Shown here piece after piece: positions 7,837 to 54,801 of a DNA stretch of 64,000 nucleotides. The stretch's first letter is position 1; each line of letters starts with the position of its first letter. The notes below the pieces were generated by a model that was not told where the DNA came from, did no database searches, and saw only the letters and a list, made by a program, of their open reading frames with translations. This stretch comes from Spirochaetia bacterium (GTDB taxonomy: Bacteria > Spirochaetota > Spirochaetia > SZUA-6 > Bin103). The DNA lies in assembly GCA_965203905.1 (NCBI GenBank), contig CBDBDQ010000005.1:6304001-6368000 (forward strand), written 5' to 3'. The position numbers and the translations under genes are program-made.

Positions 7837-7916
7837 ATGACACAGAATAGTGCTTCATAGCCTGAGGCATGCAATTCATAGGGTTAGATTCCTCGTGAGG
7901 CAATCGTGAGGCAATG

Positions 7917-8141
7917 GGGTGCATTCTTTCTCTGTGGCACCTGCGGCATCTGTGGTACGGGAAATAGAGACCCCTCCCAGAGATTCGATGATGTGGTAAG
8001 CATCTACCCCGGTGATGAGTCGTCGCTTCTGGGACGACTACGAAAGCCTGCTTCCCGCATCGCCCACCCCAGAATCCACCCAGACCCAGCCAGACCCAGC
8101 TCGAGGCGGCCTGACCGCTACCACACTGACGGAATGCACCC
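7917..8141 (+). mobile_element. Internally deleted ISKra4-like copy (MITE-sized)
   Basis: Imperfect ~21-bp inverted ends (GGGTGCATTC.../...GAATGCACCC); 8073-8141 is repeated at ~15997-16055. Confidence 0.65.
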
Positions 8142-8156
8142 CAGCGGCACCTTGCC

Positions 8157-8234
8157 TCACGTCACCGAGTCTCGCGGTGCGGAGTGCTGCCGGCGCTGGT
8201 GGCGGTAACGGTGGTGAGCCGCGCAGCGCTGGAC
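8157..8234 (-). pseudogene. Detached 3' end of the HNH gene at 14183-15451
   Basis: Reads VQRCAAHHRYRHQRRQHSAPRDSVT*, matching the C-termini of the paralogues (CAAHHRLRH...DGAT*). Confidence 0.85.
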
Positions 8235-8442
8235 TAATGCGAAGCGTCACATTACGCCTTTAGAACTAAACCGCTTCGCGGTAGGGGTGGCGTCGGCCGT
8301 CTCGAGGCGCGGAGCCCTTCCCACGTACAACCCCTATATGGTGTCTGACCTCTACTAACGGGAGATGGGTGGTTGCCCCCGGAGCGTAACGGCGCTCCGG
8401 GGGCTGATGGACCACGCGTCTCTACACCAGGAGGAGTCCATC

Positions 8443-9285
8443 ATGACACCACTGCGCCAGAGAATGATCGAAGACATGCGGGTGCGCAACCTGTCCCCGC
8501 ACACCATCGAGTACTACGTCCGCCAGGTCGCGTTGTTTGCGCGCTACTTCAACCGCTCTCCGGAACTGCTCGGGCTCGACGAAATACGAGCCTATCAACT
8601 GCATCTGGTGCAGGAGCGAAATCTGGGCTGGGGCAGCTTCAATCAGGCGGTCTGCGCTCTCCGCTTCCTGTACCTCAAGACCCTCGGCAAGGACTGGCAC
8701 ATCGAGTCCATCCCGTTCGCCAAGCAGCCCAAGAAGCTGCCGCTGGTCTTGAGCCAGGACCAGGTGCGCGCCGTACTCGATGCGATCACCAACCCGCAGC
8801 ACCGCGTCATTGCCATGACCCTGTATGCCGCCGGGCTGCGCGTTTCCGAGGCGGTCTCCCTGCGGATTACCGATATCGACAGCGAGCGGATGCTGCTGCA
8901 CGTCGTGCAAGGCAAGGGCCGCAAGGATCGTTTGGTGACCTTGGCGCCGCTCCTGCTGCACCACTTGCGCTGCCACTACCGACGCTATCGGCCCCGCCAC
9001 TGGCTGTTTCCCAGCAGGACCTATCGCGACCGCCACGTCACCAGGGATGCGGTGGCGCAGGCCATCGCCAAGGTGCGCCACGTCGTCGCCGGCAAGCCCG
9101 TATCCCCGCATACCTTGCGCCACTGTTTCGCCACCCACCTGCTGGAATCCGGCACCGATCTGCGCACCGTCCAGGCGCTGCTCGGACATGCCTCGATCAG
9201 GAGTACCGTGATCTATACCCACGTCACCCGCAAGCGCATCAGCGCAGTCGAGAGCCCACTGGAGTCGTTGCCACCGCTGCGCTGA
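8443..9285 (+). CDS. Tyrosine recombinase of the IS91-associated type
   Basis: MTPLRQRMIEDM start, GLRVSE, GKGRKDR, HTLRHCFATHLLE, LGH, Y; GGAGGAG RBS. Confidence 0.93.
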   Translation: MTPLRQRMIEDMRVRNLSPHTIEYYVRQVALFARYFNRSPELLGLDEIRAYQLHLVQERNLGWGSFNQAVCALRFLYLKTLGKDWHIESIPFAKQPKKLPLVLSQDQVRAVLDAITNPQHRVIAMTLYAAGLRVSEAVSLRITDIDSERMLLHVVQGKGRKDRLVTLAPLLLHHLRCHYRRYRPRHWLFPSRTYRDRHVTRDAVAQAIAKVRHVVAGKPVSPHTLRHCFATHLLESGTDLRTVQALLGHASIRSTVIYTHVTRKRISAVESPLESLPPLR

Positions 9286-9292
9286 GCGATCC

Positions 9293-10507
9293 GTGCACCA
9301 GCCACCCTTCGAGGTGGCCGACGTCATCCGTACCCTGGCCACTACCGACGGTCGCGTGCCAGGCTTGCGGGTGTCGCAGGCACAACAGCGCGTCATGCGC
9401 GACCTCACAGCCTGCCGTACTGCCAAGCTCGGCGGCCACGTCGATGCTTGCGACGCCTGTGGTGAACTACGCGTATCGTACAACTCCTGCCGCAATCGTC
9501 ACTGTCCGAAGTGCCAGGCGCAGCAGCGCGCCAAGTGGCTGGAGAAGCGCTGCCAAGATCTCCTGCCGGTCCCCTATTTCCACGTCGTCTTCACCCTGCC
9601 GGCGGAACTGGCGCCGCTGGCGCTGCAGAACCAACGCGAAATCTATGGCGCCCTGTTCGCTGCCACCGCCGCTACCCTCAGGACCATCGCCGCCGATCCC
9701 AAGCATCTCGGCGCTGACATCGGCTTCATCGCCGTGCTGCACACCTGGGGCCAAACGCTGCTGCACCATCCTCATATCCACTGCGTCATCCCCGGCGGTG
9801 GGTTGGCACCTGACGCGGCCACCTGGATATCCTGCCGCGACGATTTCTTCCTCCCGGTCCGAGTCCTCTCACAGCTGTTTCGCGGCAAGATGCTGGCGGC
9901 GCTCAAGCAACGCTTCGCTGCCGACCAGCTCCAGTTCCACGGTGCCCTTGCCGAGTTGGCTGATCCCGCTCGCTTCCGCGCACTGTGCCAGCAACTGCGC
10001 GCCAAGCAGTGGGTGGTGTATGCCAAGCCTCCCTTCGGCGGCCCCGAGCAGGTGCTGAAGTATCTCGCCCGCTACACCCATCGCGTCGCCATCGCCAACA
10101 GCAGAATCACCGCTGCTGACGCGGACTCGGTGAGCTTCCGCTACCGGGACTATGCCCGTGGCCGCCGGCACCGGATGATGAAACTTGATGCGGTCGAGTT
10201 TCTGCGTCGTTTCCTGCTGCACGTCCTGCCCGATCGCTTCGTCCGCATTCGTCACTACGGCTTTCTTGCCAATCGTGCACGCAAGGAAAAACTGCCGCTG
10301 TGCCGCTATCTGATTGCCCAAGCCTCCGGCCAGGACCTGATCACTGCACCTGATCTCTCAGTTTCTCTCGAACCTCCCGGCGACGATCACCAACGCTGTC
10401 CGGTGTGCCATGCAGGAACCATGCGCCGCATCCAGGACTTCTGCTCTCAACCCACCTGGGAGTATGAGTACCTGCCTGGTCGCCGCGCTCCCCCTGAGGC
10501 CGCATGA
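9293..10507 (+). CDS. IS91-family rolling-circle (Y2/HUH) transposase with zinc-finger N-terminus
   Basis: YNSCRNRHCPKCQ, HVVFTLP, LHTWG...HPHIHC (HUH), YLARYTHR, RIRHYG. Confidence 0.93.
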   Translation: MHQPPFEVADVIRTLATTDGRVPGLRVSQAQQRVMRDLTACRTAKLGGHVDACDACGELRVSYNSCRNRHCPKCQAQQRAKWLEKRCQDLLPVPYFHVVFTLPAELAPLALQNQREIYGALFAATAATLRTIAADPKHLGADIGFIAVLHTWGQTLLHHPHIHCVIPGGGLAPDAATWISCRDDFFLPVRVLSQLFRGKMLAALKQRFAADQLQFHGALAELADPARFRALCQQLRAKQWVVYAKPPFGGPEQVLKYLARYTHRVAIANSRITAADADSVSFRYRDYARGRRHRMMKLDAVEFLRRFLLHVLPDRFVRIRHYGFLANRARKEKLPLCRYLIAQASGQDLITAPDLSVSLEPPGDDHQRCPVCHAGTMRRIQDFCSQPTWEYEYLPGRRAPPEAA

Positions 10508-10767
10508 CTCAATCTCCAGAACACCGTCGGTTCGATCTCATCACGCATCCCTTCGCGCCGCCGTGCCGTTGCTCCTGCGCACCCCTGCGCGGCGCCGGTC
10601 GCGATCTGCCCGTCAACCGCTCGTCGCCGCCTTGTCATGCGGCGCTGTCACCCAGCTCCCCGTTCTGCTCCGCGAGTTCCCGCCTGCCCGAGCACGCCCA
10701 GCACTCCGCCGCCACCGGAATACCGGCGTTCCAATCTCCATAGGCGCGCGGTTTAGTTCAATCAACC

Positions 10768-10837
10768 CTATCCGAACTGGCCCCGGCCACGGGGCAACGG
10801 CCAGCGCGCCAGCCGTTCACGCGGCCAGCTCGGATAG
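10768..10837. repeat. Long hairpin at the 3' end of the IS91 unit
   Basis: CTATCCGAACTGGCC / GGCCAGCTCGGATAG, 14/15 inverted match. Confidence 0.7.
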
Positions 10838-10980
10838 ACTCCTTCTCATAATGTAAAGTGCGGGATTATGTGAAGTAGATGGCAGGACGGGTCCATTTGA
10901 TGGGCTCCAGGCAGCATTAGCGGGTAGTTGCGGTAGCCAGGACTTCGCATTATCGCGCTCCTTCAAGCAAGGAGGCATCC

Positions 10981-12210
10981 ATGCTTGAAGACCATCTCAA
11001 GTTGGCGAGCACTTGTCGCAGACTCCGTCGTGGGCCCGCGTGCGCGTATATAGACGGCTTCGCCGACTGGCTCCATGAGCGCGGCTATCAAGCCAAGTTT
11101 GTCCTGCGTACGTTGGCGGGATGGACCGACTGGCTCACCGCGAAATCGTTTACTGATGAGGCTTTCGTAGCCGGGTACGAGGCGTGCCGGAAGGAGTTGT
11201 CTGAGCGAGGCCGTGTCCGCTATCAGCGGGGACCCAACCGAAATTCACTGTGGGCCGCCACGGTGTTCATCCGGTTCTTGCGGGAGCAGGGCGTCGTGGC
11301 CGTCGAGCAGCGGCTGATTCTGAGCGAACGCTGGCCACTGCTGAAGCAGTTTCGGCAGTGGATGCTGCAACACCGAGGCGTGACACACAGCACCATGGAC
11401 GGCTACGAGCGCTACGTAGCCGATTTCATCGAGGCTCTGGGAGTTGTTCCGGCGCACTACAGCGCCGCTGCGGTGCGCGGCTTTGTGATCAAGCGCTGTG
11501 ACGGTCATAAGGTCAAAACGGCTCAGTCGATCACCACGGCGGTGCGTGCCTTCTTGCGGTTCCTCGCCGCCACCGGGCAGTGCTGCGACGGCCTGCGGCA
11601 CGCGGTGCCACGCTTCGCGTGCTACCAGCTCGCCGCCACGCCGCGGTTCCTTGAGCCTGAGGATCTGGAGAAGGTAGTCGCCAGTTGCACCGATGAGGAT
11701 GCAGTTGGGGCCAGAGATCGGGCGGTAGTCCTGCTGCTCGCTCGGCTAGGCCTGCGCGCCAGCGAGGTCGCCGAGCTGACCTTCGATGCGGTCGACTGGC
11801 AGCACGGGCGCATCGCCGTCTGCGGCAAGGGTCGGCGCCAACACTGGCTGCCGCTGCCGCAGCAGGTCGGCGACGCCATCGTCACCTATCTGCGCCGCGG
11901 ACGCCCGCCGTTGCCGGTGCCACAGGTGTTCATCTCGGCTGTGGCGCCGCGTCGCCCGATGACTCGACAAGCCGTGTCCGGTGTCGTGTGCAAAGCTCTC
12001 CGTCGCGCAGGCATCAAGGCGCCCCACCACGGTGCACATCTGCTGCGCCATTCGGCCGCCACCGCCATGCTGCGCAACGGGGTGTCCCTGGCCGGTATCG
12101 GCAGTGTCCTGAGGCACCGCTCCCCGCAGACCACCGCCCACTACGCCAAGATCGACTTCGAGCTGCTGGGCGAAATCGCCCAGCCGTGGCCGGAGGCACC
12201 ATCATGCTGA
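10981..12210 (+). CDS. RIT tyrosine recombinase A
   Basis: RLGLRASE, GKGRR, HLLRHSAAT, LRH...TTAHYAK, ends AQPWP. Confidence 0.9.
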   Translation: MLEDHLKLASTCRRLRRGPACAYIDGFADWLHERGYQAKFVLRTLAGWTDWLTAKSFTDEAFVAGYEACRKELSERGRVRYQRGPNRNSLWAATVFIRFLREQGVVAVEQRLILSERWPLLKQFRQWMLQHRGVTHSTMDGYERYVADFIEALGVVPAHYSAAAVRGFVIKRCDGHKVKTAQSITTAVRAFLRFLAATGQCCDGLRHAVPRFACYQLAATPRFLEPEDLEKVVASCTDEDAVGARDRAVVLLLARLGLRASEVAELTFDAVDWQHGRIAVCGKGRRQHWLPLPQQVGDAIVTYLRRGRPPLPVPQVFISAVAPRRPMTRQAVSGVVCKALRRAGIKAPHHGAHLLRHSAATAMLRNGVSLAGIGSVLRHRSPQTTAHYAKIDFELLGEIAQPWPEAPSC

Positions 12211-13115
12211 ACGACCACGTAGAGCGCTATCTCATGCTGCGGCGATCCCTCGGTTACAAGCTGCGGGACACAGCCCGCCATCTCCAGGCGTTCGCAGGTT
12301 TCGCCAGCGACAGGGGCGATACCCATGTCCGCGCCGCTACCGCCGTGGAGTGGGCAGCGCAGGCGTCCTCGCCGCTCATGCGCCATGTTCGACTCCATGA
12401 CGTCGTCCTGTTGGCCCGCTTCTTGTACGCCGAGGACGCGACCCACGAGATACCCCCAGCTCGCTACTTCCAGGTCCGTGTGGTGCGCCAGCCGCCCTAC
12501 ATCTACACGCCGGCTGAGATCGGCCAACTGCTGGTGGCGGCGCACCGTCTGCCCTGCTCCTACGCGCTGCGCCGGCCCGTCTATGCGACCCTGATCGGGC
12601 TCATCGCCGCCACCGGACTGCGGGTCTCGGAGGCGCTCGACCTACGCTTCGACGACCTGCTTCCCAACGCCGTTCTGCGCATCCGCCAAACCAAGTTCGC
12701 CAAGAGCCGACTGGTGCCGCTGCATGCGACCTCGGTCGACGCACTGACCGCGTACTTGCAGGAGCGGCAGCGCTTCGCCAGCGCCGACGACCATCTGTTC
12801 GTGTCAGCGAACCGCCGGCGCATCCCGACACCAATGGCCAGTACTACCTTCCAAAAAGTGATCCGGCTCGCAGGCATCGCTCCTGGCCGCCAGCGCCGCC
12901 CCCGACTGGCGGATCTGCGTCACACCTTTGCCACCAGATCCCTGCAACGCTGTGCGGTCCAGCGCGATTCGGTGGCGCGCCACTTGGTCGCGCTCTCCAC
13001 CTACCTCGGTCACGCTAGCCCCGCCTACACCTACTGGTACTTGGAGGCGACCCCGGAATTGATGGCCGACATCGCCACGGCCGGCGAGAACCTGGTTGCC
13101 GGGAGGTTGGCATGA
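12204..13115 (+). CDS. RIT tyrosine recombinase B
   Basis: RRSLGYKL, TGLRVSEAL, TKFAKSRLVPLH, DLRHTFA, YLGH...TYWYL. Confidence 0.9.
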   Translation: MLNDHVERYLMLRRSLGYKLRDTARHLQAFAGFASDRGDTHVRAATAVEWAAQASSPLMRHVRLHDVVLLARFLYAEDATHEIPPARYFQVRVVRQPPYIYTPAEIGQLLVAAHRLPCSYALRRPVYATLIGLIAATGLRVSEALDLRFDDLLPNAVLRIRQTKFAKSRLVPLHATSVDALTAYLQERQRFASADDHLFVSANRRRIPTPMASTTFQKVIRLAGIAPGRQRRPRLADLRHTFATRSLQRCAVQRDSVARHLVALSTYLGHASPAYTYWYLEATPELMADIATAGENLVAGRLA

Positions 13116-14104
13116 CTCCCATCGCACCCCTGATCACCCACTTCCTGCGCGACTACCTCCCTGTGGAGCGCGGCTATAGCCCGCATACCTGCGAGAGCTA
13201 CGCCTATGCCTTCCGTCTGTTGTTCACCTTTGCCGCCGAACGCCTCGGCGTCAGACCGTCGGCGCTTCACCTTGAACATCTCGACGCACCGCTCATCGTC
13301 GCTTTCCTGACCCACTTCGAGGTGGATCGTGGTGGCAGCCCCGCCAGCCGCAACGTCCGCCTGGCAGCAGTGAAAGCCTTCATGCGCTATGTCGAGTTCC
13401 GCCACCCGGCGGCACTGGAGCAAGCCAGGCAGATCCTCGCCATCCCCTCCAAGCGCCATGATCAGCCGCTCGTCCGCCACCTCACCATGGACCAGATCAA
13501 CGCGATTCTGGACGCTCCCGATACCTCCACCCGGTTCGGCATCCGCGACCGCGCCATGCTCCATCTGTGTTTCGCCGCTGCGCTGCGCGTGTCCGAACTG
13601 GTGACGGCGCAGGTAGCAGATCTGTCGCTGCGCGGAACTGCGAGTATCCGAGTCCTTGGCAAGGGCCGCCGTGAGCGCTGTCTCCCGCTGTGGAAGCAGA
13701 CCACCGCTGACCTGCGCGCTTGGCTCGCCGTGCGCGGAGAGGTTTCCACGCCTGAGCTGTTTCTGAACGCTACCGACAGGCCGATGGGTCGCGCCGGGTT
13801 CAAGCACCTCCTGAACAAGCATGTGCGCGCTGCCGTAGCGGACTGCCCCTCGCTGGCCGGACGCTCGATCTCGCCTCACCAGCTCCGCCACAGCTGCGCC
13901 GTCATCATGCTCCAGGCTACCGGTGATATCCGCAAGGTGGCACTGTGGTTGGGGCATGCCGATGTGCGCACCACCGAAGTCTATCTACGCGTCGATCCCA
14001 CCGAGAAGTTGGAGGCCGTCGAAGCCGTGCTGCCACCGGAACTGCGTCGCGGTCGTTTCAAAGCCCCGGACGCTCTGATCGCCGCGCTCCTGGACCCGAG
14101 ATAA
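13112..14104 (+). CDS. RIT tyrosine recombinase C
   Basis: SPHTCESY, RNVRLAA, LRVSEL, SPHQLRHSCA, WLGHA...TEVY. Confidence 0.9.
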   Translation: MTPIAPLITHFLRDYLPVERGYSPHTCESYAYAFRLLFTFAAERLGVRPSALHLEHLDAPLIVAFLTHFEVDRGGSPASRNVRLAAVKAFMRYVEFRHPAALEQARQILAIPSKRHDQPLVRHLTMDQINAILDAPDTSTRFGIRDRAMLHLCFAAALRVSELVTAQVADLSLRGTASIRVLGKGRRERCLPLWKQTTADLRAWLAVRGEVSTPELFLNATDRPMGRAGFKHLLNKHVRAAVADCPSLAGRSISPHQLRHSCAVIMLQATGDIRKVALWLGHADVRTTEVYLRVDPTEKLEAVEAVLPPELRRGRFKAPDALIAALLDPR

Positions 14105-14182
14105 TGTGCAGCGATCTTGGACACAACTTACTTTCCTGGCAGGAGTTAAGTAGCGCTACTTTACATAATCCCGCACTTCACA

Positions 14183-15451
14183 TTACAAGACCAGGTTCCC
14201 CGGCTCCGCGCCGCCGCCCACCGCGACCGGAACGATGTGGTCCATCTCGAGGCAGAAGCGCGAGCCGCAGCGCCGCCCGCTGTCCCGGTCGACGAAGGTG
14301 CAGCAGCCCTGGTCGCGCCGCCAAACCTCTCGTTTCACCGCAGCCGGAATCGATCTGCCCGACGATCTGGCGGACTTCTCCACCGAAGTCGGCTCCCCTG
14401 CGCCGCCGGTCCTCCGTTCCGGTGTCGAACTACCGGTTGCCACGCGGGACTTCGCCGCCGAAGTCGGCTCCGCCGATCCTGCGCCCCCCGTGCTCCGCTC
14501 CGAAGTCGAATCGCCGGCTGCCACGCGCGGCTTCGCCGCCGAAGGGGACACCGCCGCCGCCGCGGACTTCCCGGGCCGGTCCGGGTTCTCCGCCGCCGCC
14601 GCGACGCGATCTGCCGTCTCCCGCCCCGCTGTCCCGGACGGACGCTCGTCACTGATAGAGTCTGACTTCCGCTTCCGGCGGCGCGGCCGGCTCGGATCGT
14701 AGCGCTCCAGTCCCTCCCGCACCAGCCGCCCGACGAGTTGCCCGACCGTCAGGTGCGGATCCACGTGCGACAGCAGCTCCCGCAGCTGCTGCAGTCCACG
14801 CTGGCACTCGGCGTCGATCACCGCCTTCAGCTCCCAGCGCCCGTCCCCCAGCGCGCGCAGCCGCTCGGCCGGCGCCGCCGCCTCGGGATCCACCTCCGCC
14901 AGCATCTGCTGCACCTGCCGCGTGCTCTTGCCCACCGCCTGCTCCACCAGCTGCTGCCGGGCGTGCGCATCCAGCACCGGCGATGGCGCACCCTGCGCCT
15001 CGCCCGCCGGCGCGGATGGAGCCGAGCCGACACGCGGCGCGGCGCTGGTGCCGGCTCCCGGCGATCCGGTGGCGGCCCGTCCGCCTGCGCTGCGGTCCCA
15101 GCGCTCGAAGGAGTTCTGCAACAGGGCCGCGTTGCTCAGGTTCAGCGAGCCGTCCTGCAGCCACGCGCGCACCCCGCGGGTCTCGCGGCACAGGCGCATG
15201 GCCTTGATACGCCGCCAAGCGGCTGCCTCGGTATAGTGCAGCTCGCGCACGGTGTAGTCGAACAAGCTGGAGTAGCCGAGGCGCAGGTACAGGCGCCGCG
15301 CCTCGATTTCGCGCAGGTGGTCGAGGACGCTGAGCTGCAGCGCCTGCTCGTGGCGGGCGAGCATTCTGGTCCGCTCCAGCAGCACCTGGTCGGGGAGCAC
15401 GGCGACCGTGGAGAGGAGCTCTTCGGAGGCTGCTTCGGTCACGTTCGTCAT
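14183..15451 (-). pseudogene. HNH endonuclease (DUF222-like N-terminus), copy 1, interrupted in its HNH motif
   Basis: Same N-terminus as copies 2 and 3 (LGYSSLFDY...AAWRRIKAMRL); ends DHIVP...GNLVL* at the RIT repeat; remainder lies at 8157-8234. Confidence 0.85.
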
Positions 15452-15789
15452 GGCGTAAATATACTACTGAATTGAAAATGCCTCGAACTTACAGGTCTCG
15501 GACAGGCGTCGGAGATGGCTCAGGACGGGCGTAGCAGGGCGCTATCGAGCCAGCGGGCGCGAAGTGTTCTCTAGAAAGTCGGAAGCGCCGCTACGGCCCG
15601 TAGAGGGCCGTCATGAGCGCATCAGAATGCGTCAAGTGTTTTCTTGCGAATTTTGGGGTTTTTTGGATCGTCAGCCGGCAGCATCGGCCGGGACATCTGC
15701 CGCACCGCCGCCTGCTGCGATGCCGTCAGAGCCGCCTCGACGTTCACGGCAAAGACCTCCCGCCACGTCTTTCAACGAGACGGCCGACA

Positions 15790-15990
15790 CCCACACCTCC
15801 GGCGCCAGATCCACGACGTCGCCCATGTTCTCGACGACGCCCACCGCTACAGCAAGCAGCAGTGCTACGACCTCCAGGGCGAGATCAACTACTTCACGGC
15901 CAACCAGCAGCGCATGGACTACCCGCTGTATCGGTCGTGCGGTCTGCCGATCGGCAGCGGGGTCAGTCGAGGGGGCCTGCAAGAAACGTG
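15790..15990 (+). pseudogene. C-terminal fragment of an ISKra4/ISLre2-type transposase
   Basis: YFTANQQRMDYPLYRSCGLPIGSG then frameshifted VEGACK; boundaries approximate. Confidence 0.75.
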
Positions 15991-16076
15991 GTCGCCAATC
16001 CACCCAGACCCAGATCGAGGCTCACTGACCGCTACCACAGTGACGGATTGCACCCGAGGCAATGTGTGATCCCAGG

Positions 16077-23390: not shown

Positions 23391-24338
23391 ATGAGTGATA
23401 CGACGAGAACGGCGGTCGCCCGCAGTGAGCCCAAGAGACGGGGCGCCGTGGCCGACTTCTTTGTCAGATTGTGGAGAGAGAAGCCGCTGGGCACGGCCTG
23501 CGGGATCATCATTCTGCTGTTGATCGTGGTGGCTATCTTTGCCGATGTTCTGTCGCCCTATCCATACTGGGAGGTTCATCCGGCAGACATGCTGCTCGGC
23601 TCATCAACCCGCTATCTGCTTGGGACCGATCAGTTGGGACGCGACTTTCTGAGCCGTATCATGTACGGTGCTCGTCTTTCGTTGTTTGTCGGCCTGTCGG
23701 CGACCGCGATCAACGTGGTGGTCGCTGTCCTGATCGGGGGCACCTCGGGATTCGTCGGTGGCAAGCTGGACCTGGTGGTGCAGAGATTTGTCGATGCCTG
23801 GATGGCGTTCCCGGGACTGCTCATCCTGCTGTCGGTGATGTCCATAGCGGGCAAGGGTTTGCTGCAGATAATTCTGGTCCTGGGGATATCGGGTGGCATC
23901 GGCGGCTCCAGGATAACGCGCGGCGCCGTCATCGCGGTCAAGGAGAACCTCTATTTTCAGGCGGCCCACGCGGTTGGCGCCTCGCGGTGGACCGTTCTGA
24001 TCCGCCACGTGCTGCCCAACATTGCGGCTCCGGTAATCATCCTGTTCAGCATCAACATCGGTGGGGTGATCATTGCCGAATCTTCCTTGAGCTTCCTGGG
24101 ATTCGGCCTGCCCGCCCAGATTCCAAGCTGGGGAGGTATGCTCAGCCGGGAAGGGCGGGTGTTCATGGAGACCGCGCCGTGGCTGGCGCTCTGGCCCGGC
24201 CTGTTCCTCACGGTTACCGTCTACAGCCTGAACATGTTCGGCGACGCCGTGCGCGATCTGCTCGACCCGCGGCTGCGGGGTAGCGCAACCACGCTCCTGG
24301 GTGGCGGTGCTCGGCTCGGTGCGGACCGCGTCAAGTAG
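23391..24338 (+). CDS. ABC permease, DppC/OppC-like
   Basis: LGTDQLGRD, HVLPN, SLSFLGFG, PSWGGML, GDAVRDLLDPR. Confidence 0.93.
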   Translation: MSDTTRTAVARSEPKRRGAVADFFVRLWREKPLGTACGIIILLLIVVAIFADVLSPYPYWEVHPADMLLGSSTRYLLGTDQLGRDFLSRIMYGARLSLFVGLSATAINVVVAVLIGGTSGFVGGKLDLVVQRFVDAWMAFPGLLILLSVMSIAGKGLLQIILVLGISGGIGGSRITRGAVIAVKENLYFQAAHAVGASRWTVLIRHVLPNIAAPVIILFSINIGGVIIAESSLSFLGFGLPAQIPSWGGMLSREGRVFMETAPWLALWPGLFLTVTVYSLNMFGDAVRDLLDPRLRGSATTLLGGGARLGADRVK

Positions 24339-24516
24339 CCCGACAACGTGCCGCGTGCAGATCCCGGTAGTAGTAGATACCGGTTGCCTTCAGTGCCGCG
24401 GCCGCCCGGGAGCGCTGCTCGGCGATCGGCCATCGGCAGCGCGACGCGGGCGCCCGTGAGCTGCGCCGCGTAGGGTGCGAGCACCATACTCCAGAGCGGT
24501 TTACCAGCTCGCTCGC

Positions 24517-26621
24517 CAGGCCATCCCACCCCTGAACGACGTCTGCATCCCGTGTGGCGGAACCTGCCAGATCGCCGCCTTCACGTGCGTCGGTTCGTTC
24601 GCTGTACGAGGTGTCCAGGAATGATCGGGAAGCCGCCCACCCGCAACGCCGGGCTGGGTGGATGCGTTGCTGCCACGTTTGGCGCCGCGGTGCTGGATTC
24701 TGCGAAAGTGCCAAAAAAATTGCGCTAGGCACTTGACGGGTCTGGCGCTGCTCGTATCGGCCTCCTGCCGCACGTTCGGGCCCCTCCGACCCTGCGAACA
24801 TCCCGCCATGCGCCCCAGGCCCTTCAGCACCCACCAGCGCCGGCCTGCACCCTTCCCGGGGCCGGTCCCGGGACTCGCCGAAACCGTTCATTTCTCATCC
24901 ATGCTTATATTTACGCCATGGATACCGCGACCGCTACCGGCTTCATCTCCTCGCTCTCCGGGCTCCCCGACCAGGTGCTGCTGGCGCATACCAGGTCCCT
25001 CGTCCTGCACGAGCAGGCGCTGCAGCTCGCCGTCCTCGACCACCTGCGCGAGATCCACGCCCGCCACCTCCACCTGCGCCTCGGGTTCTCCAGCCTGTTC
25101 GACTACGCGGTGCGCGAACTGGGCTACAGCGAAGGTGCCGCCTGGCGCCGTATCAAAGCCATGCGCCTGTGCTCCGATACCGCCGGGTCACGCGAGCGGC
25201 TGCAGGACGGCTCGCTCTCCCTGAGCGCGGCGGCGCAGTTGCAGAACACCTTCGATCTCCTGCAGCGCACGGCGACCGCCGCCGCGGACCCCGGCGCGGC
25301 ACCCACGGCACCGGAGCTGCTGCCGCTCGGCACGGGGACGGCGCGGGGGCCTGGGGCTTCGGGGGCCGGGGCAGCGGCGCCGGCGCGACCGGTGCCGGCG
25401 CTGAACGCGGCGCAGCGGCAGGAGCTGGTGGCGCAGGCGAGCGGCAAGAGCACCCGCGAGGTGAAGCAGTTGTTGGCCGGGGTGGCTCCCGAGCTGGCGC
25501 GGCCGGCCGATCGCATGCGGGCGCTGGGCGCGGGCCGCTGGGAGCTGAAGGTGGTGATCGACGCGGCGTGTCAGTGCGGGATCGAGCAGCTACGGGCACT
25601 GCTGTCACACGTGGACCCGCACCTGACGCTGGGGCAGCTGGTAGAGCGGCTGGTGCAGGACGGCCTGCAGCGCTACGACCCGGGACGACCGCCGCGCGGG
25701 CGCAGAGGCGGGCGCCGGGAGGCAAGTGCGGGCCAGGCGCCGGAGCCGAAGGCGCAGCAAGGGCCAGCGGGCGGGGCGGCTTCGCCGGCGAAGCGGGACG
25801 CGCAAGAGCAACCCGTAGTGCCGACGCCGCCGGAGGGCACGAGCGGCGGTGGCAGCACCCCGGCGCCGGCAGCGCTGTCCGCAGAGGAACCCGCGCGCGG
25901 GATTGGCGGCACCGGCACCCCGGCGGTGGCAGCGCTGCCCGCGTCGCCGTCGGGGCGCGAGACTTGCGGCGGCGGCACCCCGGTGCGTGCCAAGCCAGCG
26001 GCGGCGGCGCCCGGCTCCGCTGCTTCGGCGGCGAAGTCGGTGGCAGATCGTGGGTCCCACGCCACCGTAACGACGCCACGGCCGGCGCCGCCGCCAGACC
26101 AGAGCATGCCGACCGCGCTGGCAGCGGAGGATCGCGGTCGCAGGGCTTCTTCGCCAGCGAAGCGGGCGGGGGCGGCGATGCGGGCAGGAGCGGCGCAGCT
26201 CGATGGCCGTTCGCGGCCGCAGCCCGAGGCAGCCGGCACGTCCGGAGGCAGCGCGCAGCCGCCCCACCGGGCGCCCCGGTCCCGGTATATTCCGGCACCA
26301 GTGCGGCGCGAGGTGTGGCGCCGCGACGGCGGCTGCTGCAGTTACGTCGATCCGCACAGCGGGCGGCGCTGCGGCTCCCGCTTCCTGCTGGAGCTCGACC
26401 ACATCGTTCCCTTCGCGCTTGGCGGCAGCGCCGAACCGGCGAACTTGTCCTTGTCGTGTGCTGCCCACCACCGTCTCCGGCATCGGGAGTACGGATCGTC
26501 GCCAGACGGGGCCACGTGATCGCCGCTCGCCCGGGGTGCGAGTTGGGCGGTTGGGCGTCGATCCAAGGGCAACGGAAGTAACGATAGCAGCCGGCTTGTC
26601 GCGCAGCGTGGGATAGTCCTG
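24517..26621 (+). mobile_element. HNH-carrying TIR element, copy A
   Basis: Ends CAGGCCATCCCACCCCTGAACGAC and GTCGCGCAGCGTGGGATAGTCCTG; flanked by GCTCGCTCGC at 24507-24516 and 26622-26631. Confidence 0.85.
24918..26519 (+). CDS. HNH endonuclease with DUF222-like N-terminus and Ala/Pro-rich linker, copy 2
   Basis: RREVWRRDGGCCSY...RCGS...LELDHIVP...NLSLSCAAHH. Confidence 0.88.
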   Translation: MDTATATGFISSLSGLPDQVLLAHTRSLVLHEQALQLAVLDHLREIHARHLHLRLGFSSLFDYAVRELGYSEGAAWRRIKAMRLCSDTAGSRERLQDGSLSLSAAAQLQNTFDLLQRTATAAADPGAAPTAPELLPLGTGTARGPGASGAGAAAPARPVPALNAAQRQELVAQASGKSTREVKQLLAGVAPELARPADRMRALGAGRWELKVVIDAACQCGIEQLRALLSHVDPHLTLGQLVERLVQDGLQRYDPGRPPRGRRGGRREASAGQAPEPKAQQGPAGGAASPAKRDAQEQPVVPTPPEGTSGGGSTPAPAALSAEEPARGIGGTGTPAVAALPASPSGRETCGGGTPVRAKPAAAAPGSAASAAKSVADRGSHATVTTPRPAPPPDQSMPTALAAEDRGRRASSPAKRAGAAMRAGAAQLDGRSRPQPEAAGTSGGSAQPPHRAPRSRYIPAPVRREVWRRDGGCCSYVDPHSGRRCGSRFLLELDHIVPFALGGSAEPANLSLSCAAHHRLRHREYGSSPDGAT

Positions 26622-26917
26622 GCTCGCTCGCTGCGCCAGCTTGTCATGCTTCCGCGGGTCTGCTATCATCGTGGCGAGACCAGGGAGTCTCGCCGGGACC
26701 TCTCTCCTCTCGGAGAAGCTGCCCGGAAAACACCATGCTCAATTGAGAGCATGCTCGACGGAGATGCTGGGCCGATGGACAGTCCGCGGGTCGCTCGTTG
26801 AAGCGACCGCAGCAGGTACATTTCCGATCCACTGACTCGCGCTTCCCGGCAACCGGGAACGGCGACGAGTTCGAGCTCAGCAGGTCCGGCGAGCTCCCTG
26901 ACTCCCTGCTTCGGCTC

Positions 26918-27940
26918 TTAGTGCCACACCTTCTCCCAACGACCTGATTGCGCCGAGCGGTAGATGGCCAGCGCCGTCCGCAGCTCGCCGAGCGACGCTT
27001 CCGCCGGGGCGGCCGGTTGCCTGCCGTCCAGCACCACCGCTTCGAAATCCGCCATCTCGGGCGCGAAGGACGCGGCATAGCCGTGTTCTCCCGCGATCGG
27101 CCGTCCCTCGGGATGCTCCCGGTCCACCAGCGTCATGCCGCCGTCGAAGCCGCCGTGAATGACGATCTCGCCCTCCGTGCCGGTGAGCCGCCACCATGGC
27201 CCTGCCCACAGCGGCGCGTCGCTGGTGATTGCCTGGAAGCTTGCCACCACGCCGGAGCGGAACCGCAGCAGGGCATGGGCCAGTGACTCGCCCTGCATCA
27301 CCGACAGCAGCCGGGAGGTGGTCGCTACCACCTCCTCCACCTCGCCGAGCCACATCCGCAACGGGCGGATCCAGTGCGCGCCGCCGTCCACCACGACGCC
27401 GCCACCGGTACGGGACACCTCGTAGCGCCAGGAGTCGGACGGGTACCAGAACGGATCGTGCGACGCCTCGAACGAGGCCCGCGCCGTGACCGCCTCGCCG
27501 ATCGCCCCCTGCGCGAGCAGCTCGCGGGCACGCACCACGTCGGGCCAGTACTGGGAGTTCTCGGCCACCATGAAGACGGTGCCGGCGCGGCGCGCCGCCT
27601 CCTGGATGCGCGCGCAGGCGTCCAGCGTCAGTGCCATCGGCTTCTCCAGCAGCACGTGCTTGCCGGCCGCGAACGCCCGCGTGGCCAGTTCCTCGTGCAG
27701 GTCGTGTGGCACCATGATGTCGACGGCGTCGAAGTCGCCGGCGGCGAGCGCCGGCTCCAGGGAGGCGTAGGTACGCGCCCCGGTGCGGGCGGCGATCGCC
27801 GCCGCGGCGTCGGGGTCGGGGTCCACGGCCGCGGTCACCCGGGTGCGCGGTGCCGCCTGCTCGATGCCGTCGAGATGAAAGCCTGCGATGCGGCCGCAGC
27901 CGACGAAGGCCAGCCGCAGCTCGGGCGCGTCGTTTGCCAT
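26918..27940 (-). CDS. Gfo/Idh/MocA oxidoreductase
   Basis: VGCGRIA, HVLLEKP, GGGVVVDGGAH. Confidence 0.9.
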   Translation of the reverse strand: MANDAPELRLAFVGCGRIAGFHLDGIEQAAPRTRVTAAVDPDPDAAAAIAARTGARTYASLEPALAAGDFDAVDIMVPHDLHEELATRAFAAGKHVLLEKPMALTLDACARIQEAARRAGTVFMVAENSQYWPDVVRARELLAQGAIGEAVTARASFEASHDPFWYPSDSWRYEVSRTGGGVVVDGGAHWIRPLRMWLGEVEEVVATTSRLLSVMQGESLAHALLRFRSGVVASFQAITSDAPLWAGPWWRLTGTEGEIVIHGGFDGGMTLVDREHPEGRPIAGEHGYAASFAPEMADFEAVVLDGRQPAAPAEASLGELRTALAIYRSAQSGRWEKVWH

Positions 27941-52352: not shown

Positions 52353-52665
52353 GGGGGTTGGGTCGGGTCGTTCGTCCGCCCTGAGCGATGTAGTTCGGTT
52401 TCCGCTACGGTCCGGCATCTGCAGCAGTATACGCCGGTTCGCGGCCTGGCAGCCCGTGGCGAAACTCCGGCTGCATTCGAGCAGCGATCCATCCCGGCTG
52501 CTTGCGTTGCTCCTCGCTCACACATGCTCTGATATGCTCGTTCGTCGCGCCTTGCCAGTCCGGGCGCCTCGCCGCTCGCTGCGACGCCGGGTTCCGCCAC
52601 AGGCTGCTGGCGGCCCCGGTACGGTGCATCTGCACCGGTCCGGCGGGAGCGTACTGCCGCACACC

Positions 52666-54744
52666 CAGGACTGTCCCACGCTGAACGACGTCTGCATCTC
52701 GTGTGTGAGCGAGCTGCGGTGATGGCCCCGGCGCGGCGCCTGCCAGATCGCCGCCTTCAGGGTGCGTGGCTCGTTCGCTGTACGACGTGTCCAGAAAAAG
52801 GGCGTAGCCCGCACCGGCAAACACGCCGGTCTCCGCCGATGCGTTGCTGGGCTTGTCGGCGCCGCGGTGCAGGATTCGCAGGATTCTGCGAAAGAGTGCC
52901 AAAAAAAGTACGCTGAGCACTTGACGGGTTTGGCGCTGCTCGTAACGGCCTCCTGCCGCACGTTCCAGCCCCTCCGACCCTTCGAACATCCCGCCATCCC
53001 CACCAGGCCCGTCAGCACCCCGCCTGCGCCGGCCTGCACCCTTCCCGGTGCCGGTCCGGGACTTGCCTAAACCGGATATTTATCAGCCATGTTTATATTT
53101 ACGGCCATGATCACCCCCTTGACCACCGCGACCCCTACCGGCTTCGCCTCCTCGCTCTCCGGGCTCCCCGACCAGGTGCTGCTGGCGCATACCAGGTCCC
53201 TCGTCCTGCACGAGCAGGCGCTGCAGCTCGCCGTCCTCGACCACCTGCGCGAGATCCACGCCCGCCACCTCCACCTGCGCCTCGGCTTCTCCAGCCTGTT
53301 CGACTACGCCGTGCGCGAGCTGGGCTACAGCGAAGGCGCCGCCTGGCGCCGTATCAAAGCCATGCGCCTGTGCTCCGATACCGCCGGGACACGCGAGCGG
53401 CTGCAGGACGGCTCGCTCACCCTGAGCGCGGCGGCGCAGTTGCAGAACACCTTCGATCTCCTGCAGCGCACGGCGACCGCCGCCGTGGACCCCGGCTCGG
53501 CACCCGCGGCACCGGAGCTGCTCCTGCGCGGTGCAGAGACGACGCCGCAGGATGGGGCTTCGGGGACCGCGGCAGCGGCGGCAGCGCGACCGGTGCCGGC
53601 GCTGGACGCGGCGCAGCGGCAGGAGCTGGTGGCGCAGGCGAGCGGCAAGAGCACCCGCGAGGTGAAGCAGTTGTTGGCCGGGGTGGCTCCCGAGCTGGCG
53701 CGGCCGGCCGATCGCATGCGGGCGCTGGGCGAGGGCCGCTGGGAGTTGAAGGTGGTGATCGACGCCGCGTGTCAGTGCGGGATCGAGCAGCTACGGGCAC
53801 TGCTGTCGCACGTGGACCCGCACCTGACGCTGGGGCAACTGGTGGAACGGCTGGTGCAGGACGGCCTGCAGCGCTACGACCCGGGGCGGCCGCCGCGCGG
53901 GCGCAGAGGTGGTCGCCGGGAGGCAAGCACGGGCCAAGCGCCGGAGCCGAAGGCGCAGCAAGGGCCGGCGGGCGGAGGGACTTCGCCGGCGAAGCGGGAC
54001 GTGCAAGAGCAACCCGGAGGTCCGGCGCCGCCGGAGGGCACGACCGCCGGTGGCAGCACCCCGGCGCCGGCAGCGCTATCCGCGCCGCCGCCGGGGCGCG
54101 AGACTTGCCGGGGCAGCAACCCGGTGAGTGCCAAGCCGGCGGGCGCGGCGCCCGGCACCGTCGCTTCGGCGGCGAAGTCGGTGGCCGATCGTGGGTCCCG
54201 CGCCACCGTACCGACGCCACGGCCGGCGCCGCCGGCGGACCAGAGCTTGCCGACCGCGACGGCACCGGCGGATCGCGGTCGCAGCGCTCCTTCGCCAGCG
54301 AAGCAGGCAGGAGGGGCGCAACTCGATGGCCTTTCGCGGCCACAGTCAGAGGCAGCCGGCCCCTCCGGAGGCAGTGCGCAGCCGCCCCACCGGGCGCCCC
54401 GGTCCCGGTACATTCCGGTACCCGTGCGGCGCGAGGTGTGGCGCCGCGACGGCGGCTGCTGCAGTTACGTCGATCCGCACAGCGGGCGGCGCTGCGGGTC
54501 CCGCTTTCTGCTGGAGCTCGACCACGTCGTTCCCTACGCGCTCGGCGGCGGTGCGGAGCCCGCCAACTTGCGCCTCCGCTGTCGAGCCCACCACCGCTTC
54601 CGGCATCGTGAGGACGCGCCGTCGCCAGACGGGGCCACGTGATCGGCGCTCGCCGAGGTGCGAGTTGGGCGGTCGGGCGCGGGTCCGAGGGCAGCGGGAG
54701 CAACGACTTGCAGCCGGCGTGTCGCGTAGCGTGGGATAGTCCTG
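52666..54744 (+). mobile_element. HNH-carrying TIR element, copy B
   Basis: 24-bp TIR CAGGACTGTCCCACGCTGAACGAC vs reverse complement of 54721-54744 (20/24); CCGCACACC duplicated at 52657-52665 and 54745-54753. Confidence 0.88.
53107..54642 (+). CDS. HNH endonuclease with DUF222-like N-terminus, copy 3
   Basis: Close paralogue of 24918-26519; LELDHVVP...NLRLRCRAHH. Confidence 0.88.
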   Translation: MITPLTTATPTGFASSLSGLPDQVLLAHTRSLVLHEQALQLAVLDHLREIHARHLHLRLGFSSLFDYAVRELGYSEGAAWRRIKAMRLCSDTAGTRERLQDGSLTLSAAAQLQNTFDLLQRTATAAVDPGSAPAAPELLLRGAETTPQDGASGTAAAAAARPVPALDAAQRQELVAQASGKSTREVKQLLAGVAPELARPADRMRALGEGRWELKVVIDAACQCGIEQLRALLSHVDPHLTLGQLVERLVQDGLQRYDPGRPPRGRRGGRREASTGQAPEPKAQQGPAGGGTSPAKRDVQEQPGGPAPPEGTTAGGSTPAPAALSAPPPGRETCRGSNPVSAKPAGAAPGTVASAAKSVADRGSRATVPTPRPAPPADQSLPTATAPADRGRSAPSPAKQAGGAQLDGLSRPQSEAAGPSGGSAQPPHRAPRSRYIPVPVRREVWRRDGGCCSYVDPHSGRRCGSRFLLELDHVVPYALGGGAEPANLRLRCRAHHRFRHREDAPSPDGAT

Positions 54745-54801
54745 CCGCACACCGGCGCCGCGGGGGACGGTCTCGGAGCGCTGGTATAGAGTACCTGGGC
54801 T

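Follow-up and report, generated by a model that had tools for sequence, protein, structure and literature searches.

The 64,000-nucleotide stretch analysed here (the window; C5:6304001-6368000) comes from the genome of a Spirochaetia bacterium (G000; 8.0 Mb, 66% G+C, five contigs) and contains two copies, termed A and B, of an element whose sole conserved open reading frame (ORF) encodes a protein with an HNH nuclease domain. Copy A is most probably a mobile insertion cassette: descended from an ISAs1-family insertion sequence (IS) but no longer autonomous, it would have been mobilised in trans, with the HNH nuclease as a passenger. Inverted ends, target-site duplications, an empty site and the lack of a transposase inside the element were observed directly, as were ISAs1-family IS of sister species with matching ends and duplication length, and a parallel case on ISKra4-type ends. 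The shared ends and duplication length suggest that an ISAs1 transposase was the actual mover of these copies, and our best guess is that the HNH protein is a selfish passenger.

Family 1 is a transposable element

Copy A occupies positions 24517-26621 of the window on the plus strand (2105 bp) and belongs to what is here called family 1 of the HNH elements. Its left terminal inverted repeat (24517-24529, plus strand; CAGGCCATCCCAC) is degenerate relative to the family consensus CAGGGCCATCCCATGCT, and its right one (26608-26621, plus strand) reads GTGGGATAGTCCTG, with the reverse complement CAGGACTATCCCAC, so that the element has CAGG...CCTG inverted ends. These are flanked by a 10-bp duplication, GCTCGCTCGC, at 24507-24516 and 26622-26631, which was read directly and is identical at 10/10 positions. 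The ORF inside (24918-26519, plus strand; 533 amino acids) is followed by a 102-nt trailer. Copy B (52666-54744, plus strand; 2079 bp) has an ORF at 53089-54642 (517 amino acids), again with a 102-nt trailer, and is flanked by the 9-bp duplication CCGCACACC at 52657-52665 and 54745-54753. Similarity between copies does not extend beyond the element termini. An earlier sequence-only reading of this stretch had described the 2105-bp unit, its ends, its 10-bp duplication and the trailers of both copies, all of which were confirmed, as was its statement that the similarity to copy B is bounded by the ends. The duplication length that it gave holds for copy A, but the family norm was found to be 9 bp, and the left end of copy A is a degenerate version of the consensus CAGGGCCATCCCATGCTGAACG. 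A repeat of ~170-190 bp (window 52432-52620) adjoins copy B on the left, is multicopy in G000 and in sister genomes (80-95% identity) and is missing from the relatives' empty sites of copy B; it is probably another miniature mobile element.

No DDE, HUH or recombinase-like domain was seen in the copy A protein by Pfam, NCBIfam or predicted fold, in agreement with the earlier description of the gene as encoding a helical N-domain, a linker and an HNH domain. Pfam returned only HNH (PF01844; 23.9 bits with a cut-off of 21.4, amino acids 484-523), and NCBIfam returned only a weak IscB-HNH stretch (NF040563; 19.9 bits versus a cut-off of 175). The AlphaFold2 model, based on 57 homologues, has predicted local distance difference test values above 90 at amino acids 11-125, 160-255 and 450-525. 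It is helical at 18-123 and 164-253 save for one beta hairpin (199-211), has disordered linkers and an HNH fold at 460-526, and contains no RNase-H-like domain. The protein is thus laid out as helical, helix-turn-helix-like N-domains (amino acids ~11-125 and ~160-255), disordered P/A/G-rich linkers and an HNH domain (~450-526). A Foldseek search of the model against the PDB gave no match at E <= 0.001; the best sub-threshold matches were HNH domains and, for the N-domain, a weak ParB/Noc helix-turn-helix. Among the copies, the linkers at amino acids 120-150 and 270-450 differ in length, and the ORFs range from 482 to 551 amino acids.

A BLAST search of G000 with the copy A unit returned 98 pieces, which represent ~45 near-full copies at 85-92% identity and, in addition, a second HNH family with ~74% nucleotide identity to family 1 over parts of the ORF. 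Left and right ends (consensus CAGGGCCATCCCATGCTGAACG and CGCAGCGTGGGATAGTCCTG, respectively) were paired by script into 30 units, comprising 29 full-length copies and one 247-bp mini copy (C5:5072023-5072269) that consists of two family-1 ends joined; 11 left ends stayed unpaired. The 9-bp flanks were identical in 6 of the 30 units and matched at 8/9 positions in another 3, a 10-bp duplication was found at 10/10 in 2 units and at 9/10 in 2 more, and the duplication was not clear in the other 17. In the control, just 0.34% of the non-self flank pairings reached 8/9, and the observed pattern is far above chance expectation. Further duplications were recognised by eye at interrupted copies (AGCGCCCGT, TTCTCGCTT, GCATCGCCAT, AAGGCTCAC, CCACCGCGC and TCACATCAA), and no common motif was found among the duplicated 9-mers. 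The element is missing at the site of copy B in four genomes of the same genus (G001, G004, G006 and G007), where the two flanks are separated by only 50-170 bp, and G007 has a single target-like stretch there. Since end-paired copies carry their own duplications and copy B has empty sites in relatives, the family-1 unit is a genuine transposable element. The sequence-only reading had called for all genomic copies to be collected and for empty sites to be sought; the former yielded many copies with duplications of their own of 9-10 bp, and the latter succeeded for copy B but not for copy A, for which no empty site was found in the relatives and synteny stops at the insertion point.

The divergence among family-1 copies is star-like, with a median pairwise identity of 0.90, nearest neighbours at ~0.91 and just one pair at 0.967. 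No transposase was found inside the longer copies: the 2.6-kb inserts in two of them are an unrelated IS with GTAAACATTCGG ends, which is present in six identical copies in G000, has hit two HNH elements and which, judging from its protein motifs, we take to be IS66-like. Three other family-1 elements are split by inserts of ~67-70 kb (C5:1893371-1962267, C5:4748141-4817856 and contig C3:28092-100410). The split point in these three ORFs is common (element positions 576-592, with an overlap of ~15 bp), and the outer 9-bp duplications are intact (AAGGCTCAC, CCACCGCGC). One such insert has a tyrosine integrase (L167:4082-5287, minus strand) ~170 bp from the junction, and DNA methylase and McrBC-like genes at the opposite end. 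The arrangement suggests an integrative island for which the repeated HNH gene serves as attachment site, and is reminiscent of phiRv1 in REP13E12.

Insertion sequences with matching ends

No IS sharing the 45-bp ends of family 1 was found in G000, where only HNH elements matched; scans of the same genome with shorter end motifs returned an Rpn-type unit and some end relics. This evidence at first seemed to favour an autonomous HNH element, because the 45-bp ends were confined to HNH elements, no ISAs1 transposase reached the cut-off in G000 and the end sets of different HNH elements differed. The reading was reversed because the ends of the HNH elements of G010 proved to be those of an ISKra4-family IS and the ends of copy A proved to be those of ISAs1-family IS in sister genomes.

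A pattern scan for CAGGRCNATCCCAYGCT covered 20 relatives, and ISAs1-type ends were found in 10/10 same-genus genomes searched. At three loci of G010 (L155-L157), the 1.7-2.1 kb between such ends encode DDE_Tnp_1_assoc and DDE_Tnp_1 domains (NF033564, 150.7-152.1 bits, cut-off 70), with duplications GCGTGCCATC, CCGCCATCG and CGCTGGGTG. Transposases 69% identical to that of G010 are encoded by a 2164-bp IS of G001 (L162:1204-3367; ends CAAGGCGATCCCATGCT and CAGGGCGATCCCATGCTGA; duplication GCTCGGCGGC), a genome that holds four identical-scoring ISAs1-family copies, and by a 2170-bp IS of G004 (L161:862-3031; duplication CAGGCGCA). Comparison of the family-1 consensus CAGGGCCATCCCATGCTGA with the ends of these IS (CAGGGCGATCCCATGCTGA in G001, CAGGGCGATCCCATGCT in G004 and CAAGGCGATCCCATGCTA in G010) showed 16/17 to 19/20 bases matching. 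The duplication lengths are compatible, being 9-10 bp for the family-1 cassette and 8-10 bp for the IS of the three genomes. The ISAs1 family is characterised by CAGGG ends and 8-10-bp repeats, as catalogued in ISfinder. Thus, family 1 and the ISAs1-family IS have in common ends that start with CAGG(G), 17-20 nearly identical terminal bases and comparable duplications, and they differ in that family 1 has no ISAs1 transposase. That copy A could itself be an autonomous ISAs1-family IS was ruled out, as its ORF matches none of NF033564, DDE_Tnp_1_assoc and DDE_Tnp_1. In G006, a 2231-bp unit between ISAs1-type ends carries an ORF with DUF222 and HNH domains.

Two side observations concern these IS. 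The draft genome of G008, from the same genus, has 104 sites with ISAs1-type ends, many of them paired ~125-140 bp apart, suggesting an extensive burst of mini elements that carry no gene. The ISAs1-family transposases of G010 (L155:460-2268) and their G001 and G004 homologues are extended at the N-terminus by a region with a match to Pfam DruA (Druantia protein; 75.3 bits), and a shorter ISAs1-family transposase of 411 amino acids at L157 has no such extension.

The second HNH family has ends that differ from those of family 1 (GGGTGCATTCC...GAATGCACCC), and its duplications are also 9 bp long. A third end set (GGGCGCACTTCCAA..., with the shared ends given as GGGCGCACTTCCAATTTGT) was found on the HNH elements of G010. 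A pattern scan for the latter gave 30 sites, 9 of which lie away from HNH copies; five of these nine were fetched and aligned, and they proved to be a near-identical IS of ~1523 bp with the same ends and with 9-bp duplications. There are nine copies of this IS, and its 467-aa ORF matches the ISKra4-family transposase model NF033572 (216.8 bits; cut-off 205). An intact homologue (54% identity) is present in G000 at C5:2122481-2124038, with family-2-type ends, an ISKra4-like transposase at C5:2122522-2123913 and the duplication CCAGGATTG. What family 2 retains of this IS is its left 59 bp, a collinear piece from the 3' part of the transposase gene and the right-hand ~95 bp; family 2 is therefore an internal-replacement derivative of it. 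Hence the same genome holds a cognate transposase for family 2, in an intact ISKra4-like IS, and only relics for family 1. The sequence-only reading had offered, as one of two options, a non-autonomous cassette, and had suggested a search for an IS with matching ends and a transposase. Such IS were found, of the ISAs1 family for family 1 (G001, G004 and G010) and of the ISKra4 family for family 2. Their DDE transposases go with ends and a duplication length shared with the respective cassettes, which supports the cassette option; a cognate transposase was also what the sequence-only reading had named as able to reduce the element to passenger cargo, if it moved the cassette independently of HNH.

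The window itself contains a family-2 element in two parts on the minus strand. The left part (14186-16055) has ISKra4-type ends GGGTGCAATCCGTCACTGTGG and the duplication CATTGCCTC at 16056-16064, with a leftover of the 3' end of an ISKra4-like transposase gene at ~15827-15967; the right part (7917-8229) terminates in ...CCACAGAGAAAGAATGCACCC and has the same duplication, CATTGCCTC, at 7908-7916. The HNH ORF (14183-15451) was truncated by a later insertion. This interrupting insertion of 5.96 kb (8230-14185) contains a tyrosine recombinase beside an IS91-type Y2 transposase (8365-10507), followed by three tyrosine recombinases in tandem (10981-14104), and parts of it are repeated elsewhere in G000 at 99% identity. 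Elsewhere in the genome, an IS of 2918 bp (C5:5005554-5008473 and four more near-identical copies; ends GGGTGCGGCTCTTTT; 9-bp duplications AAACGAAAA and AATTCAATT) has a 537-aa ORF that is 32% identical to an ISKra4-family transposase.

Both kinds of ends also enclose other cargo. A 1290-bp unit (C5:5515052-5516341) has nearly the ends of the HNH elements (CAGGGCGATCCCATGCT..., CAGGACAATCCCATGCT...) and encodes a YhgA/Rpn-type PD-(D/E)XK protein (PF04754, E 1.1e-15); the sequences flanking this unit agree at only 6/9 positions, and its other copies are partial. A Uma2-like nuclease gene (26.5 bits, just below the cut-off of 27) is enclosed in units of ~1.2-1.5 kb with ISKra4-type ends at C5:1243292-1244796, 1213860-1215070, 1865991-1867300 and other sites. 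There, the same 9-mer, CTCGATGAT, lies on both inner sides of the gene, next to two small end-to-end mini elements, and an outer duplication, CCGCTCGCT, surrounds one whole unit; this layout is that of a cointegrate or composite formed from two mini elements.

Overall, the following course of events is proposed for family 1. Copy A would have kept terminal inverted repeats recognised by an ISAs1-type DDE transposase, with an HNH nuclease gene, including a DUF222-like and putatively DNA-binding N-domain, in the place of the transposase gene. An ISAs1-family transposase acting in trans may then have excised or copied the cassette and inserted it at 9-10-bp staggered cuts in unrelated GC-rich targets, which would have led to the ~45 copies. 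The autonomous partner would later have decayed in G000, leaving relics. Such a decay of the parent fits the ~10% divergence among the copies, its star-like form and the decay of many of the duplications.

Counter-evidence and rival explanations

Several observations weigh against a passively carried ISAs1 cassette. The similarity of family 1 to the ISAs1-family IS is limited to the ~17-20 terminal bases, and a search of G000 with transposase queries found no ISAs1 transposase leftover inside family-1 copies. No intact ISAs1 transposase scored above the cut-off in G000, so that mobilisation in trans is argued from relics (C5:4758225-4758631, and C5:4213316-4213408 beside an end-like site) and from sister species. 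In G008, where mini elements abound, no ISAs1 transposase was found with the query used in a genome that is 88% complete and in 340 contigs. The ORF is retained in 25 of the 29 full-length copies, as would not be expected of a purely neutral passenger. Neither would the low ratios of nonsynonymous to synonymous substitution (dN/dS) in the folded domains: across family-1 copies, dN/dS was 0.17 in the first N-domain, 0.29 in the second and 0.22 in the HNH domain, versus ~1.1-1.25 in the linkers, and the diversity by codon position in the first N-domain was 0.038/0.016/0.109. Finally, related HNH genes occur on two IS chassis that are unrelated, a hint that chance capture may not be the whole explanation.

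When did this selection act? Singleton changes, which are mostly recent, are distributed over the three codon positions as 29/25/42 in the N-domains and 37/34/51 in the neutral linker, that is, much alike. This places the selection in the period of spread rather than in the present copies, which seem to drift; ongoing purifying selection on the present copies was rejected, given the even spread of singletons over codon positions.

A rival explanation is that an IS transposase moves the element but the HNH nuclease boosts the success of the cassette, which would make it a hyperparasite of insertion sequences. For example, cleavage of empty sites, or of the parent IS with its transposase gene, could lead repair to copy the cassette there, or the nuclease could make loss of the cassette costly. 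We consider this rather unlikely, even though it agrees with the contrast in dN/dS between folded domains and linkers, with the homologous HNH genes on ISAs1-type and ISKra4-type chassis, with the replacement of most of the transposase gene in family 2, with copy numbers that vary widely among sister genomes and with the excess of cassettes over intact autonomous IS in G000 (~45 vs 0 for family 1 and ~12 vs 1 for family 2). Against it, the protein has no known cleavage target, the duplications share no sequence and hence show no homing site at the insertions, recent changes in the N-domains resemble those in the linker, and neither PADLOC nor Rfam gave a match; the latter search covered window 23500-27500 at E <= 1, including the 400-nt leader and the trailer, and returned nothing resembling a guide RNA. 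The sequence-only reading had likewise suggested that the nuclease might give the cassette drive or retention, for which the low dN/dS of the folded domains (0.17-0.29) would be indirect support at most.

Far less probable is that the HNH gene is useful to the host or defensive and was spread by IS ends, with selection acting via the host. Past purifying selection on the protein would be expected, and the Rpn-type nuclease found on the same ends is of a kind linked to defence (PMC10400941). Yet ~45 redundant copies would be hard to maintain by host benefit, PADLOC recognised no known system, and the recent changes look neutral. A new class of element with terminal inverted repeats and target-site duplications, in which the HNH protein would act as transposase, its N-domain binding the ends and its HNH domain cutting, is very unlikely and close to refuted: the ORF is the only one and is retained in most copies, three end sets pair with three HNH protein lineages and G000 has no intact IS with family-1 ends, but each end set is common to IS with DDE transposases of known families and with the same duplication length, family 2 retains a transposase-gene leftover, the same ends also enclose an Rpn-type gene and gene-less mini copies, and we know of no precedent for strand-transfer catalysis by HNH nucleases.

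Beyond the preferred reading of copy A as a trans-mobilised cassette, a residual puzzle is that related nuclease genes with past purifying selection sit on two unrelated IS chassis and far outnumber their autonomous partners. With the two chassis and this excess, it is conceivable, if unlikely, that the nuclease takes an active part as an IS parasite. A broader proposal, which we regard as tentative and on balance improbable, is that DUF222-type HNH genes in general are IS hyperparasites that have repeatedly seized unrelated IS chassis (ISAs1, ISKra4) and replaced the transposase gene, with the nuclease helping them to out-multiply or outlast the parent IS. If so, hyperparasitism would be a general route of spread for REP13E12-like HNH repeats, and PD-(D/E)XK genes (Rpn, Uma2-like) may use the same route.

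Relation to known systems

Family 1 resembles mobile insertion cassettes, such as MIC231 (IS231; Bacillus cereus), in its IS-type inverted ends, its target duplications, a passenger in place of the transposase gene and a presumed dependence on a transposase in trans. It differs from them in its ISAs1-type chassis (ISKra4-type in family 2), in its HNH passenger, in its ~45 copies and in the presence here of related passengers on two unrelated chassis. According to PMC4444841, mobile insertion cassettes consist of IS ends around a passenger gene without a transposase, as in the qnrS2 cassette. With transposase-less cassettes between IS ends already described there, and with no feature of copy A requiring that the HNH protein take part in its own mobility, the second option of the sequence-only reading, a new element class, is not upheld, and its view of copy A as the best candidate for an undescribed system was too strong. 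A literature search over partly accessible sources found no description of an HNH-only element with inverted ends and duplications.

Two other kinds of element were considered and ruled out. A homing endonuclease gene, which would insert through repair at a single specific target and leave no target duplication, does not agree with the diverse duplicated 9-mers and the many insertion sites. An RNA-guided element of the IscB/TnpB type was set aside as the NF040563 score covers the HNH stretch only and Rfam gave no match. Family 1 is like TnpB and IscB in IS200/IS605 and IS607 elements in that a transposon carries a nuclease gene that is not its transposase; unlike these, it has inverted ends and duplications, and it lacks a RuvC domain, a match to a guide RNA and a transposase of the HUH or serine type. 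Eukaryotic KolobokP transposons (PMC9587614) encode a DDE transposase and a His-Me finger endonuclease. They are comparable in placing a nuclease of the His-Me/HNH type on a DDE-type element with terminal inverted repeats, and they differ in keeping their own transposase, whereas the family-1 nuclease stands alone.

How do multicopy DUF222-like HNH genes spread? The copy A protein belongs to a superfamily with 14,933 representative clusters (E <= 0.001), and many of these are only 300-350 amino acids long and have no linkers. Close relatives of copy A were not found in 300 other sampled genomes of the phylum (no match at E <= 1e-10), and a comparison with plasmids gave one weak, unrelated match. 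A metagenome scan for distant relatives returned 9 loci, and an inverted-repeat search at 6 of these 9 revealed no convincing ends. For the present lineage, the analysis offers a concrete, testable answer, and what had been a candidate for a new transposon class becomes a probable explained case, in which HNH repeats would have spread on ordinary DDE IS ends. It follows that, when a nuclease gene is found alone between inverted repeats, these should be compared with the ends of IS in the same and in sister genomes before autonomy is claimed. The DUF222-HNH/REP13E12 repeats of mycobacteria are comparable in that they, too, are multicopy genes whose products combine a helical N-domain with an HNH domain at the C-terminus. 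The copy A protein is unlike them in having no DUF222 (PF02720) match at E <= 0.1, while P0243 scores 22.9 bits (cut-off 24.4) and the G006 relative, which sits on the same type of ends, matches DUF222 with 73.7 bits.

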